NCBI GenBank assembly: GCA_050268805.1
Contig: JBLNHB010000343.1
Coordinates: 1-27,083 of the forward strand
Source of the DNA: a bacterium
GTDB lineage: Bacteria > Nitrospirota > Thermodesulfovibrionia > Thermodesulfovibrionales > BMS3Bbin05
Direction: 5' to 3'
DNA: 27,083 bases
A program made the translations under genes and the position numbers. The first letter of the stretch is position 1, and each line of letters starts with the position of its first letter. Below the pieces are notes generated by a model that saw nothing but the letters and a program-made list of their open reading frames with translations, made no database searches and was not told the origin of the DNA. This document shows, piece after piece, positions 2,565 through 5,966 of this stretch.

Positions 2565-2580
2565 TGGCATATAAATTGCT
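2565..2580 (+). promoter_or_regulatory. Sigma54 (-24/-12) promoter upstream of lpxC
   Basis: TGGCAT-ATAAA-TTGCT, with GG at 2566-2567 and GC at 2578-2579, exactly 10 nt apart. Matches the TGGCAC-N5-TTGCW consensus. Confidence 0.75.
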
Positions 2581-2594
2581 TGGACAAAACGATT

Positions 2595-3476
2595 ATGAAA
2601 AAACAGAGAACAATAAAAAATGATATAACCTTCCAGGGCATTGGTCTTCATTCAGGTAAAATGTGCACGGTAACATTGCGTCCGGCCAATGCCGATACAG
2701 GTATTGTTTTCTTCAGGACAGACAGAGGAATTATGATAAAATTGCACCCTGGTGCTGTTGTCGATACCGCATTTGCCACTACCATAGGCTACAATGGTAC
2801 AAGAATCAAAACCATTGAACACATATTATCTGCTCTTTCTGCCTTTGAGATTGACAATGTCTGCATAGATATTGAAGGCCCTGAGATACCGATTCTGGAT
2901 GGTAGTTCGTTCGAGCTTGCCGAGATTCTTTTAAAAGCAGGCATAGAACATCAAAATGCTTATAAAAAAGTCCTGGAAATACTCCACCCCTTTTCTGTTT
3001 CAGACGGATTGACATCCATTGAAATCCTTCCATACCAGGGGAGAAAATTTTCACAAACTATTGAATTTCATAATCAATTTCTGGGGAGGCAAGAATACAG
3101 TATTGATCTGACACCTGAGGCTTATATGCAGGAGATTGCTCCTGCACGTACATTTGGTTTTCTCAAAGATGTTGAAATGCTGAGGCAGAATGGACTTGCT
3201 AAAGGTGGATCGCTCGAAAATGCTGTTGTTATAGATGGAAACAGGGTTATAAATCCTTCAGGATTGCGTTATAAAGACGAATTTGTAAGACATAAAATAT
3301 TAGATTGCATTGGAGATATGTATTTATGTGGCATTTATATACAAGGACATATCATCAGCGAGCGTTCAGGACATTCAACAAACGTTAAGTTTTTAAAACA
3401 ACTCCTTCTCGCAGCAAGCACTTATAGAATCCAGCCTTACGAAGCTTCTCGTGGATTTATGCCTGCCCAAGCGTAA
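2595..3476 (+). CDS. lpxC: UDP-3-O-acyl-N-acetylglucosamine deacetylase
   Basis: KKQRTI, GIGLHSG, TIEHILSAL, EIPILDGSS, EIAPARTFGF, RHKILDCIGD, GH motifs. Start set at ATG 2595 (MKKQRT). Confidence 0.97.
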   Translation: MKKQRTIKNDITFQGIGLHSGKMCTVTLRPANADTGIVFFRTDRGIMIKLHPGAVVDTAFATTIGYNGTRIKTIEHILSALSAFEIDNVCIDIEGPEIPILDGSSFELAEILLKAGIEHQNAYKKVLEILHPFSVSDGLTSIEILPYQGRKFSQTIEFHNQFLGRQEYSIDLTPEAYMQEIAPARTFGFLKDVEMLRQNGLAKGGSLENAVVIDGNRVINPSGLRYKDEFVRHKILDCIGDMYLCGIYIQGHIISERSGHSTNVKFLKQLLLAASTYRIQPYEASRGFMPAQA

Positions 3477-3511
3477 AAAAGCTTGCTTTTTTGAAAAAAT
3501 CCCAGTATGAT

Positions 3512-3542
3512 AAGAAAAAGGCTGGAGGTTTCCCTCCAGCCT
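3512..3542 (-). terminator. Intrinsic terminator for the regulator and micropeptide transcript
   Basis: Perfect 10-bp stem AGGCTGGAGG/CCTCCAGCCT (3519-3542), GAAA loop on the minus strand, followed by TTTTCTT. Confidence 0.85.
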
Positions 3543-3564
3543 AAATCTAAAAACTGTTAAATCA

Positions 3565-3642
3565 CTATCTCTTTTTCTTTTTTGCGGCTTTCTTTACGGT
3601 TTTTTTCGCCGCCTTCTTCGTTGCCTTTTTCTTCGTCGCCAT
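3565..3642 (-). CDS. 25-aa Lys/Ala-rich basic micropeptide MATKKKATKKAAKKTVKKAAKKKKR (histone H1/Hc-like composition)
   Basis: ATG 3642, strong SD AAAGGGGGTGA ending 4 nt upstream, tandem stops TAG TGA, terminator just downstream. Too short for the ORF track. Confidence 0.75.
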   Translation of the reverse strand: MATKKKATKKAAKKTVKKAAKKKKR

Positions 3643-3658
3643 TGTTTCACCCCCTTTC

Positions 3659-3684
3659 ATCACCTGAACTCCGATTCAGGTGAT
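3659..3684. repeat. Perfect 10-bp stem-loop between the regulator stop and the micropeptide SD
   Basis: ATCACCTGAA-CTCCGA-TTCAGGTGAT. No U-tract follows it on the minus strand. Confidence 0.8.
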
Positions 3685-3690
3685 TCTTAT

Positions 3691-4239
3691 TTAGAGTCTT
3701 CCCAAAAGTAATATCTTTTTACTTTTGAGAATATCTTTTAACCGAAGGTCATCACTCTTCTTTCTCTCATTCATCTCAGCTTCCGTGACTGTAAAAGCAT
3801 TCATTCGTACCGAAAAGTTGTCTTCAATCTCCTTCAGACTCTTTTGGAGCGAACCGGAAGCGTTGATAACGAAGAGATCGACTGTATTATTTACAGGATG
3901 TCCTTCCGCATAAGGACCATAGATAAATGCTGACGTTGCTCCGGCAGCTCTGAGAACCGCTTTGAGGGCTCCGGGCAGGCCAAGCGATTTGGTTATGAGT
4001 TTTTTGAGATCAGGATACAGAGGGGATTTAATATTTGCTCTGAAGTACTTTAAATTTGCAACTCTTTCTGCAATGACAATTCCCATCTTTTCAAGATTGT
4101 CAAGCTCGCGTTTTACTCCGGATGGATTTTTTCGTAAGAGCTTTGCAATTTCTCGAACATAAAACTTCTCCTCCGGGCTATTCAGCAAAAGAGCTAAGAC
4201 ATCGGCTCTTATTGATGAGGAGAAAAGTTTCTTTAGCAT
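3691..4239 (-). CDS. Winged-helix (ArsR-like) regulator fused to a degenerate minimal nucleotidyltransferase (MNT)-like domain
   Basis: N-terminal LFSSSIRADVLALLL...YVREIAKLL...VKRELDNLEKMGIV wHTH. C-terminal FIYGPYAEG...NTVDLFVI resembles the MNT motif FGSxAxG...SDIDL. Confidence 0.75.
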   Translation of the reverse strand: MLKKLFSSSIRADVLALLLNSPEEKFYVREIAKLLRKNPSGVKRELDNLEKMGIVIAERVANLKYFRANIKSPLYPDLKKLITKSLGLPGALKAVLRAAGATSAFIYGPYAEGHPVNNTVDLFVINASGSLQKSLKEIEDNFSVRMNAFTVTEAEMNERKKSDDLRLKDILKSKKILLLGRL

Positions 4240-4257
4240 TTCTAATTACCTACATTA

Positions 4258-4286
4258 TTTATATACAAATAATTCATTTTTGTCAA
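4258..4286 (-). promoter_or_regulatory. Sigma70 promoter of the wHTH-MNT gene
   Basis: Minus strand TTGACA (4286-4281)-N17-TATAAA (4263-4258), about 20 nt upstream of ATG 4239. Confidence 0.75.
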
Positions 4287-4535
4287 CAAAAAAATTATAT
4301 CAATGAACATTTTTTTATTTTCTAAGAACGATAGTTCAAATTAAATCATGAATTCAATATAAATCCTCAACAAGATTTTCTAACAGGGTGTGTGGTATTG
4401 CTGAGCTATACCTTTAGATTCATCTAATGCGTACTGAACGATCCCGCATTTGATGAACCTCGAGAAAAGTATGCGTGAGGATTAGCCCATGATTCGTACT
4501 ATTGATAGCTGCATAACAAATGTCCTATTTAATGA

Positions 4536-4582
4536 GCAAGCAATTCATCCCTGTGCTCTTGGCACAGGGATGAATTGCTTGC
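4536..4582. repeat. 21-bp perfect inverted repeat with 5-nt loop, likely an IS200/IS605-type end hairpin or REP-like element
   Basis: GCAAGCAATTCATCCCTGTGC-TCTTG-GCACAGGGATGAATTGCTTGC, 22 nt upstream of the tnpA relic. Confidence 0.85.
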
Positions 4583-4604
4583 CTCAGTGTTCAGTGGAGT
4601 TATA

Positions 4605-4779
4605 ATGAGATGTACCTGAGCGTGAGAAAGAGATATGGTATTGGTGCCACAACATTTCGGAGTGTTACTACTATATACAATTGACGGTGAAATATCGGAA
4701 GGTGGTATTGGATAAGAGGGTTGAGAAAGCGATAGTGGAGTCGATGAAAGGATTCAATGAGAGGTATGCGATAGAGGTG
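4605..4779 (+). pseudogene. IS200/IS605-family Y1 (TnpA-like) transposase N-terminal fragment, frameshifted and truncated
   Basis: Frame 1 reads DVPEREKEIWYWCHNISECYYYIQLTVKYRKVVLDKRVEKAIVESMKGFNERYAIEV, resembling the IS200 TnpA (H..YH...VKYR..L) N-terminus. ATG 4605 with GGAG SD is out of frame. No HUH motif follows. Confidence 0.7.
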
Positions 4780-4843
4780 ACAAAGTATAAATGTCGCAAT
4801 GTTTACCCATACGGTTACATTTTACGCGGCGCAATACGAATTA

Positions 4844-4873
4844 TTGACAAAGGAATATGCTCAACGATAGTAT
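4844..4873 (+). promoter_or_regulatory. Sigma70 promoter of tRNA-Leu
   Basis: TTGACA (4844-4849)-N18-TAGTAT (4868-4873), about 40 nt upstream of the tRNA. Confidence 0.6.
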
Positions 4874-4913
4874 AGATTCATTATTGTCTCAAAATATCAT
4901 TGCTCTCTCACAT

Positions 4914-5000
4914 GCCGAAGTGGTGGAATTGGTAGACACGCAAGATTCAGGATCTTGTGGGGGAAACTCTGTGGGGGTTCGAATCCCCCCTTCGGCACCA
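4914..5000 (+). tRNA. tRNA-Leu(CAG), 87 nt, CCA encoded
   Basis: Acceptor GCCGAAG/CTTCGGC plus A-CCA; D-loop GGTAGAC; anticodon stem CAAGA/TCTTG with loop TTCAGGA; long variable arm; T-arm GGGGG-TTCGAAT-CCCCC. Confidence 0.98.
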
Positions 5001-5131
5001 ATCCGATAAGATATCAGATGCTGCGCGTGGCTCTCTCAGCCCGTTGCGCGGACCATCTACCTCTCTCCATGAGGTACCCGGCGCCGTGATTCGACGCTGA
5101 ATTCCGGAACAGCTAAAAAACAGGGGAATCC

Positions 5132-5140
5132 TGTTATAAT
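5132..5140 (+). promoter_or_regulatory. Extended -10 promoter (TGtTATAAT) for the ZIP transporter
   Basis: Perfect TGnTATAAT 76 nt upstream of ATG 5217. Confidence 0.65.
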
Positions 5141-5216
5141 GTGGAGGCCGTTTTTGCTGTTTTTCAGGGTGATGAACAGGACTACATTATTGATAACCGT
5201 GCTCTAGGAAGAAACC

Positions 5217-5966
5217 ATGTCCACTAACTGGCTCTATGCACTGGGAAGCGTTGTTCTGGTAAGCTTGGTATCACTCATAGGCATCGCCCTTATTCTGTTT
5301 CAGGAACAGAAACTGAACCGCACCATCTTTTTCCTCGTAAGTCTCGCCGCAGGGAGTCTCTTCGGCGATGCATTCATTCACCTGCTGCCAGAGGCATATA
5401 GGCATACTGATTTCACCATACATGCCTCTCTCTATACGCTTCTGGGGATTTTCCTATTTTTTGTTCTCGAGAAGTTCATCCGGTGGCGTCATGTCCATAC
5501 CCTCCATTTCAACAAATCAATCCATCCGATTGGTTATATGAATTTGATTGCAGACGGTATTCATAATTTTATCGACGGCATTATCATCGGCGCAGCATAC
5601 CTGGCGAGTTTGCCGGTCGGTATTGCGACCACCGTTGCCGTCATCCTCCACGAAATTCCGCAGGAGATCAGCGATTACGGAATTCTGCTCTATGCAGGGT
5701 TCAGCAAAACAAAGGCGCTCTTTTTCAATTTTTTCTCTGCCTCTCTTGCCGTGCTCGGAACCCTGATCTCTCTGTCTGCTGGCTCTGACCTCCCTGGTTT
5801 CTCAGCCGTCATGCTGCCGATCACGGCCGGGGGGTTCATATACATTGCCGGGTCTGACCTGCTTCCCGAGCTCCACAAAGAGGTCAAACCTTTGAAGTCT
5901 GTTCTTCAGCTGACCGCAATCCTTATCGGTATCGGCTTAATGTACCTGCTCACTGCTCTCGATTAG
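5217..5966 (+). CDS. ZIP family divalent metal (Zn/Fe/Mn) transporter
   Basis: Multiple hydrophobic segments, LAAGSLFGDAFIHLLPEA, His-rich loop HVHTLH, NLIADGIHNFIDG, LHEIPQEISD, IYIAGSDLLPEL. Confidence 0.93.
   Translation: MSTNWLYALGSVVLVSLVSLIGIALILFQEQKLNRTIFFLVSLAAGSLFGDAFIHLLPEAYRHTDFTIHASLYTLLGIFLFFVLEKFIRWRHVHTLHFNKSIHPIGYMNLIADGIHNFIDGIIIGAAYLASLPVGIATTVAVILHEIPQEISDYGILLYAGFSKTKALFFNFFSASLAVLGTLISLSAGSDLPGFSAVMLPITAGGFIYIAGSDLLPELHKEVKPLKSVLQLTAILIGIGLMYLLTALD

Follow-up and report, generated by a model that had tools for sequence, protein, structure and literature searches.

A lysine-rich micro-ORF behind a winged helix-turn-helix gene

The window analysed here is a stretch of 27,083 nt (contig JBLNHB010000343.1, assembly GCA_050268805.1) from a bacterium of the Nitrospirota, order Thermodesulfovibrionales. 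On its minus strand lies an open reading frame (ORF) of 25 codons, the subject of this work, which follows the gene for a winged helix-turn-helix (wHTH) and MNT-like protein (P0001) and faces lpxC on the opposite strand. The micro-ORF starts with ATG at 3642-3640, its last codon is at 3570-3568 and it is closed by TAG at 3567-3565, followed in frame by a second stop, TGA, at 3564-3562. The product, MATKKKATKKAAKKTVKKAAKKKKR, has 25 residues with 13 lysines, one arginine, no aspartate or glutamate and a net charge of about +14, and it shows a KKxx periodicity. The original prediction had described a histone-like micropeptide of this composition, placed after a wHTH-MNT gene on the same strand and behind a non-terminating hairpin; our translation agrees with the composition, the strand is minus, and the arrangement, hairpin included, recurs in related genomes as described below.

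The longest form of this ORF, started from a GTG, has a lysine fraction of 0.44, compared with 0.20 for the runner-up among the 369 window ORFs of at least 20 aa and with a maximum of 0.30 in 200 block-shuffled windows. The micro-ORF is not a chance ORF. The 32-aa GTG-started reading itself (from 3663) was dropped, because it is without a Shine-Dalgarno (SD) sequence and its start lies inside the hairpin.

Conservation and length variation

A profile made from an alignment of 20 P0001 relatives was scanned against species-representative genomes, which gave 253 loci encoding a relative. We fetched the best 80, all from Nitrospirota/Thermodesulfovibrionales, and together with the window they make up the 81 copies compared here (single loci are given by L numbers); 80 copies are complete (79 loci and the window), one long copy being truncated by a contig end. 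Directly 3′ of the wHTH gene, and in the same orientation, all 80 loci carry a lysine-rich ORF. A strict filter (ATG start, lysine plus arginine at least 40 %, 12-80 aa) was positive in 68 of the 80; the remaining 12 were read by eye and all carry the same gene, four with a GTG start and eight as long forms (87-160 aa, about 33-39 % lysine). With a uniform rule (SD-like motif, nearest start codon, lysine at least 30 %) all 81 copies were positive, window included. The check by synteny that the original prediction had proposed, downstream of wHTH-MNT homologues near lpxC, therefore found a lysine-rich ORF with an SD sequence in each of these 80 loci.

The length of the product varies strongly, from 14-29 aa in 69 copies to 54-160 aa in the other 12. 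Residue 2 is alanine in 80 of 81 copies, the N-terminus MA..KK is conserved, and the commonest C-terminus is AKKK (56/80). Summed over the 80 loci, the composition is 1125 lysines, 747 alanines, 421 threonines, a single glutamate and no aspartate. The short and the long forms appear to be one gene, because they have the SD sequence, the hairpin, the MAT.KK start and the genomic position in common. In a phylogeny of the wHTH proteins (quick IQ-TREE run with all 81 rows), a switch between long and short forms occurs at least three times. The window groups with ten long-form loci (SH-like approximate likelihood ratio test 99), a placement that is uncertain because the window branch is long (0.47).

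Additional copies were seen in a few cases. Locus L054 contains, besides its positional copy, another lysine-rich micro-ORF (MACKPGHKEPKKTAKKTAAKKKKK) behind the same SD motif. It lies on the minus strand at about 1820-1746 (locus coordinates), diverges from the wHTH gene and is roughly 1.2 kb upstream of that gene; this is the sole extra copy in the 80 loci and the window, and some genomes may hold micro-ORF paralogues. Three pairs of loci (L039/L047, L022/L055 and L026/L060) each come from one assembly that has two wHTH plus micro-ORF loci on different contigs, which could be paralogous copies or mixed bins.

Coding potential and the inverted repeat

We compared 213 equal-length pairs of short forms without gaps. 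The ratio of non-synonymous to synonymous differences (pN/pS) was 0.28 in the named frame and 0.66 and 2.34 in the shifted frames, the absolute values being rough because the pairs are ungapped. As many as seven DNAs, differing at 2-8 sites, encode one and the same peptide. Lysine codons in the micro-ORFs are AAG 840 times and AAA 298 times, against 911 and 773 in the neighbouring wHTH genes. Ribosomes slip on long A-runs, and the AAG preference fits an avoidance of such runs; it is also partly forced by the inverted repeat around the terminator. We have high confidence that the micro-ORF is protein-coding, as its pattern of substitutions suggests. The claim that a real gene lies here is borne out by the conserved position, SD sequence, start, N-terminus and terminator and by the frame-specific synonymous excess. 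Tandem Repeats Finder found no repeat in 3400-3800. Rfam searches returned nothing at the micro-ORF either in the window (3300-5300, E-value mode), where a tRNA elsewhere was the sole match, or in 20 of the 80 loci (gathering mode), where again only a tRNA elsewhere in the scanned stretch was found.

Past the T-run of the terminator there is, in most short-form loci, a motif (TTTGCGGTCTTC) to which the final codons (..GAAGACCGCAAA..) are exactly reverse-complementary over 10-20 nt. We aligned the terminator region of all 68 short-form loci and the window (alignment A2, 69 copies, 67 distinct rows). The outer helix formed by this repeat joins A2 columns 17-28 with 133-144 in short-form loci (within L002-L080) and is weak in the window (3585-3577 with 3518-3510). 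Across the 69 copies it is 87.8 % paired, and both partners vary in 5 of the 12 pairs, while in controls with a slid 3′ partner 41-57 % of cells pair over the whole named structure; the structure was drawn from the consensus, which favours its pairing score. The number of repeat units is mirrored on both sides, with two units each in L036, L045 and L074, and L034 has a compensatory change. The long forms lack the outer helix; of the 10 long copies with a detected hairpin, 9 have it 3-11 nt beyond the stop codon and L025 has it 21 nt beyond. On one reading, the antisense of the lysine codons is a U-tract that terminates transcripts running in the lpxC direction, and the outer helix brings this tract beside the stem. 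Alternatively, the repeat is possibly a quasi-palindrome that drives the gain and loss of repeats. The idea that the outer repeat stands in for a missing lpxC terminator was examined through a complementary distribution of the two, which did not discriminate; in just 2 of 74 copies does the lpxC strand have a terminator-like site of its own in the stretch from lpxC to the shared hairpin.

Translation and termination signals

The 11 copies in which the SD 11-mer is not identical differ from it by a single base (Table 1). The distance from SD to start is 4-9 nt across the 81 copies, and the start codon is ATG in 77 and GTG in 4. The predicted duplex with the anti-SD sequence (computed with the canonical tail, not that of this genome) has -20.6 kcal/mol, the strongest value among the 23 window genes. 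The next has -12.0 kcal/mol, and the duplex of the upstream gene P0001 is weak at -4.2 kcal/mol. The SD sequence had been called near-maximal, and these predicted values agree with that.

In the window, a stem-loop occupies the space between the stop codon of P0001 (3693-3691) and the SD sequence. Of the 81 copies, 78 have a hairpin of -5 kcal/mol or lower between the two genes; its stem sequence differs among copies, and it ends 0-4 nt 5′ of the SD sequence. Compared with shuffled sequences its median z is -2.9, and z is below -2 in 64 of 81 copies. RNAalifold gave no consensus structure for this region in 80 of the 81 copies (L025, with its long spacer, was excluded), because MAFFT cannot register hairpins of unequal length; the hairpin figures given here therefore come from folding each sequence singly and comparing it with its shuffles.

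The terminator-like hairpin after the micro-ORF has 10 pairs, 7 of them G-C, and is followed by TTTTTCTT. The conserved stem GGCTGGAG...CTCCAGCC with a T-run is present in 77 of the 80 complete copies and is 95.4 % paired across the aligned short-form copies, so the terminator that had been assigned to the micro-ORF is kept. The tandem stops, which had also been cited in support of translation, are present in the window but kept in only 3 of the 80 complete copies. Between stop and terminator, the 3′ untranslated region of many short-form loci contains a conserved C/A-rich motif (..CACATGCACACACGAT..; A2 columns ~40-75), from which the window spacer (3543-3564) deviates.

Table 1. Features of the micro-ORF operon in the window (positions on the 27,083-nt stretch)
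Feature	Position	Strand	Remarks
Candidate operator, GAAC-N4-GTTC palindrome GAACTATCGTTC	4326..4337	-	51 nt upstream of -35
Putative sigma-70-type operon promoter	4258..4286	-	TTGACA 4286-4281, 17-nt spacer, TATAAA 4263-4258, T-run 5′
P0001, 182-aa winged-HTH and MNT-like (nucleotidyltransferase-fold) protein	3691..4239	-	HTH_5, PDC-M05A
Intercistronic stem-loop	3659..3684	-	11 pairs, 4-nt loop, -15.2 kcal/mol, no T-run after it
Extended Shine-Dalgarno sequence AAAGGGGGTGA	3647..3657	-	ends 4 nt before ATG; identical in 70/81 copies
Micro-ORF, 25 codons and TAG	3565..3642	-	positional orthologues in 80/80 loci; pN/pS 0.28
Predicted intrinsic terminator	3508..3542	-	stem-loop 3542-3519 (GGCTGGAGG/CCTCCAGCC) and T-rich tail

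The upstream gene and its surroundings

P0001 has a winged HTH of the ArsR type (Pfam HTH_5, E 2.8e-05). It matches the PADLOC profile PDC-M05A (PDLC04368) with an E-value of 3.8e-34, residues 3-181 aligning to positions 8-191 of 201, and the nearest ESM Atlas clusters carry PF01909/PF18765. The label wHTH-MNT holds, because the protein is a full-length relative of PDC-M05A and because of these Atlas clusters. We found 929 relatives of P0001, and the best named ones all belong to Nitrospirota/Thermodesulfovibrionales. PDC-M05 is presented in a 2026 survey (PMC12988326) as a nucleotidyltransferase together with a HEPN protein in a toxin-antitoxin-like layout. No HEPN partner was detected here: there is no ORF of at least 90 aa in 3477-3690 or 4240-5216, the downstream gene is the 25-aa ORF, and the Pfam matches of the other window genes examined are to housekeeping families, none of them HEPN. 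Searching the PDB by sequence, once with the profile of the wHTH-MNT protein and once with the C-terminal 95 aa, gave only chance-level matches.

The catalytic motif of MNT enzymes is G[SG]...D-x-[DE]. Aligned to it by eye, P0001 reads G108-P109 (3913-3918) ... D121-L122-F123, so that the second carboxylate appears to be absent; the motif region (residues 119-122) corresponds to window positions 3875-3886. The MNT-like enzyme may be inactive, because L122 and F123 are nearly invariant in the alignment of 20 relatives.

The gene lpxC (2580-3476, plus strand) is convergent with the micro-ORF operon in the window and is found convergent downstream in 73 of the 80 loci. The stop-to-stop gap between the two has a median of 141 nt across loci and is 88 nt in the window, where lpxC has its own terminator-like hairpin (3468-3485, plus strand) overlapping its stop codon. 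A leader peptide or transcription attenuator was considered and rejected because no further gene comes after it on its strand; beyond the terminator lies convergent lpxC, in the window as well as in those 73 loci. A link to lpxC and lipid A is likewise unsupported, given the convergent orientation of the genes and the lack of a signal sequence in the peptide. The remaining window genes encode a sigma-54 response regulator, a nucleoside phosphorylase-family protein, a ZIP transporter, YchF, glycogen synthase, a large sensor kinase, BamA and TamB; the window genes examined include neither mobile nor defence genes. Upstream of the operon is a gap of about 1 kb (4240-5216) with a G+C content of 0.38 and without an ORF of at least 90 aa, inside which lies a tRNA-Leu(CAG) gene (4914-5000, plus strand).

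Promoter and candidate operator

The putative promoter, TTTTTTTGTTGACAAA...TATAA(A/T), is conserved in the alignment of the upstream regions (71 copies, i.e. 70 loci and the window; 46 rows viewed). An automated promoter scan missed it in the window because the scan demands T at position 6 of the -10 box. In the last 120 nt of the wHTH gene, third codon positions form no conserved run of the kind that an internal promoter would leave. With neither room nor signal for a separate promoter, the micro-ORF is probably co-expressed with the regulator.

Upstream of the promoter, phased GTTC half-sites are located near -22, -43, -60 and -81, counted from the -35 box, in most of 75 copies (74 loci and the window), and the palindrome GAAC-N4-GTTC is found in 38 of the 75. 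These half-sites and the palindrome are a possible operator array, and its binder could be the wHTH protein itself or a LexA-type repressor. In eight loci (L008, L018, L021, L023, L028, L033, L035 and L046) the wHTH start lies about 5-10 nt after the -10 box without an SD sequence, which suggests that in these loci the regulator may be translated from a leaderless mRNA, with the SD sequence of the micro-ORF maximal.

Relationship to histone-like families

The 12 longer orthologues were compared with Pfam HC2 (PF07382, gathering cut-off 40 bits). Ten match at E<=1; five of these reach the cut-off (40.1-48.6 bits) and five stay below it, while two have no match. With the NCBIfam models for Hc2 and for Burkholderia H1-like proteins, scores of the long forms are 26-38 bits, far under the cut-offs of 80 or 135, and the short forms give no match. 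The family at this locus overlaps HC2, because 5 of its 12 longer orthologues reach the cut-off; the 25-aa form cannot be filed by any model, although its composition is of the HC2 type, with short lysine-rich repeats spaced by alanine, threonine or valine and practically free of acidic residues. The likeness to H1 and Hc2 that the original prediction had drawn is therefore upheld for the longer orthologues and finds no model match for the 25-aa peptide itself. A search with a 103-aa form returned 22 proteins, all with PF07382; where a source gives a name, it is HU, topoisomerase I, Ku or a phasin-type polyhydroxyalkanoate regulator. Judging from these sequences, the lysine-rich repeat is apparently most often a tail on DNA-binding proteins.

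Chlamydial Hc2 (PMC2848022) has 165-237 aa and is made of lysine-rich pentamers, its 36-aa elements consisting of five pentamers and a hexamer. The proteins at our locus, with sizes of 14-160 aa, fall outside the NF038052 definition (165-237 aa, 36-aa elements, 135 bits). The 103-aa form of L021 was also searched against proteins of 30-55 aa, where none of 1760 candidates had E<=1. Exact look-ups of ten forms (five short, five long) in a set of 15 billion proteins found none of them, a result that says little for the short forms because the set lists no protein below 30 aa. In the open-access literature and bioRxiv we found no description of a stand-alone lysine-rich micro-peptide or nucleoid micro-protein gene, and none for Thermodesulfovibrio either.

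Proposed role and alternative explanations

We hold, with moderate confidence, that the micro-gene represents the shortest class of an order-wide, length-plastic family rich in lysine, alanine and threonine, which would encode binders of polyanions (most probably DNA) resembling Hc2 and H1 tails, and which would be co-transcribed with a regulator. Transcription would start at the sigma-70-type promoter of the wHTH-MNT-like gene, with the micro-ORF as the second cistron of a two-gene operon; a bicistronic mRNA seems likeliest because the promoter is conserved, no signal for an internal promoter is seen and the hairpin fills the intercistronic space. The peptide would be made in large excess over the regulator, because the ribosome-binding site of the regulator is weak and the micro-ORF has its 11-nt SD sequence behind a conserved stem-loop. 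A strong terminator would then close the operon against convergent lpxC. The peptide itself is predicted to be an unstructured polycation that binds polyanions sequence-unspecifically, most probably chromosomal DNA. By analogy with Hc2 and with the lysine-rich tails found on H1, HU and topoisomerase I, it could neutralise charge and compact or bridge the DNA, and the wHTH protein would set its dose through the GTTC-repeat region of its own promoter. We infer translation, co-transcription, abundance, DNA binding and autoregulation from these features, and nucleic-acid condensation is suggested by the composition and by the relatives.

Several points weigh against this reading. The gene and its product are known here from sequence alone. 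The pN/pS values are rough, although the contrast between frames is clear, and in most short forms the inverted repeat constrains the last codons and so explains some of the DNA conservation without a protein. The accessibility of the SD sequence, calculated by partition function, is ambiguous, with a median unpaired probability of 0.45 and values above 0.5 in 34 of 81 copies. The 25-aa peptide and the other short forms match nothing in Pfam, NCBIfam or PADLOC, and, HC2 being a low-complexity family, the long forms may match it through similar composition no less than through common descent. A phmmer search with the 54-aa form of L001 against 1.84 billion representatives gave no matches, a null that is uninformative because the query is of low complexity. 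With 14-25 residues, a peptide may lack the length needed for compacting DNA alone at physiological salt, and regulation by the wHTH protein is conjecture.

Among the alternatives, we regard it as unlikely that the product is a micro-protein associated with the ribosome or RNA, either an accessory tiny basic ribosomal protein or a hibernation-type factor. It is comparable in size and charge to the smallest basic ribosomal proteins, the SD sequence is very strong, conservation is order-wide, and one database relative of the long form joins the lysine-rich region to PF00829. Against this stand a length of 14-160 aa at one locus, with at least three changes of length class on the wHTH tree, and a low-complexity, repeat-like sequence that lacks the fixed residues a defined rRNA pocket would require. 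No ribosomal-protein model matches, and the gene is outside a ribosomal cluster. Ribosome binding, which the original prediction had offered beside nucleic-acid condensation, gets no support: nothing points to the ribosome, and the length range argues against a fixed rRNA site. It is rather improbable that the peptide is a toxin-like or effector partner, a growth-arresting polycation in the place of HEPN that is repressed or neutralised by the wHTH-MNT-like protein. Over-made Hc1/Hc2-type proteins do condense DNA and halt growth, and the gene order is the same as in PDC-M05 (regulator/nucleotidyltransferase first, small partner second, here without an adjacent HEPN gene); the match of P0001 to PDC-M05A, a system described as toxin-antitoxin-like in the 2026 survey (PMC12988326), also speaks for this. 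However, the context is stable and housekeeping-like, with lpxC convergent in most loci and no mobile or defence genes in the window, unlike mobile islands. Moreover, another residue appears to replace the second carboxylate of the MNT motif, and the peptide contains threonine but neither the tyrosine nor the serine that known MNTs modify.

A role as counter-ion or organiser of another polyanion, for instance in polyphosphate granules, appears very doubtful to us. AlgP of Pseudomonas, with its H1-like tail of KPAA repeats, associates with polyphosphate granules and spaces them (PMC9239181), and the micro-ORF has a composition of the AlgP type. Yet no polyphosphate gene is found among the window genes examined, and AlgP requires a long repeat domain, whereas the short forms have 3-5 repeats. 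Finally, the purine-rich stretch could be an element that works as RNA or DNA, within an inverted repeat or a bidirectional terminator that also serves lpxC, and the ORF would then be incidental. The paired outer helix, its two-sided changes and the lower pairing of the slid controls favour such an element. We nevertheless consider it highly improbable, as it leaves unexplained the near-invariant SD sequence 4-9 nt from ATG or GTG, the MA..KK N-terminus and the frame-specific synonymous excess; the long forms are without the outer helix, the window copy of it is weak and Rfam has no match.

A more far-reaching reading is, in our view, unlikely. In it the micro-ORF and the wHTH-MNT-like gene would be a domesticated two-gene module derived from HEPN-MNT-type systems, in which a 'bacterial protamine', a free-standing polylysine-like peptide that can be as short as 14 residues and that reversibly compacts the nucleoid, has taken the place of the nuclease toxin. 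A catalytically degenerate, signal-sensing wHTH-MNT protein would dose it through the phased GTTC and GAAC-N4-GTTC sites of the operon promoter, and its length would be tuned between lineages by gain and loss of repeats, helped by the quasi-palindrome around the terminator.

Lysine-rich H1- and Hc2-like proteins are known in a few bacteria, where they have 100-240 residues or occur as tails, and here the putative product is free-standing with 14-29 residues. A lysine-rich micro-gene has been kept across a whole order together with its regulator, ribosome-binding site and terminator. If it is made at the level that its signals suggest, the peptide could be a major counter-ion of chromatin or other polyanions in these sulfate-reducing Nitrospirota. 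The forms from 14 to 160 residues at one locus offer a natural series for the minimum length of a nucleoid-binding polycation, and the case illustrates that synteny can reveal conserved micro-genes missed by gene callers.

Comparison with known systems

The closest known proteins are Hc2 (hctB; PF07382, NF038052) and the Hc2-like proteins of Bordetella and Burkholderia (NF038053), which have the same short repeats rich in lysine, alanine and threonine and are nearly free of acidic residues. In Hc2 (PMC2848022) length varies via repeat number, as it does at this locus. However, at 25 aa for the window peptide and 14-29 aa for most orthologues, the size is roughly one tenth that of Hc2, and there is no 36-aa element. 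The micro-ORF also occurs in another phylum, with a fixed operon partner in the wHTH-MNT-like gene and with no known developmental cycle.

The C-terminal tail of histone H1, the KPAA repeats of AlgP and the lysine-rich tails on HU, topoisomerase I and Ku share the composition and the presumed mode of action, that of a disordered polycation on DNA or polyphosphate. These tails hang on a folded domain, whereas here the repeat is the entire predicted gene product, down to 14 residues. Protamines and polyamines are charge-neutralising DNA condensers, and protamines are arginine-rich, eukaryotic and sperm-specific. The micro-ORF peptide is likewise very small, very basic and apparently sequence-unspecific, but it is lysine-rich and bacterial and has no homology to protamines.

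The smallest basic ribosomal proteins are of the bTHX, bL36 and bS22 type. The peptide resembles them in its size of about 25 aa, its high positive charge and its strong translation signals, and differs as a low-complexity repeat of variable length that matches no model and is encoded outside a ribosomal operon. With the HEPN-MNT systems and PDC-M05 the locus shares a full-length PDC-M05A relative followed by a small gene on the same strand. It differs from them in that the partner is not HEPN, the MNT motif appears to be without its second carboxylate, and the locus is syntenic and housekeeping-like rather than mobile.

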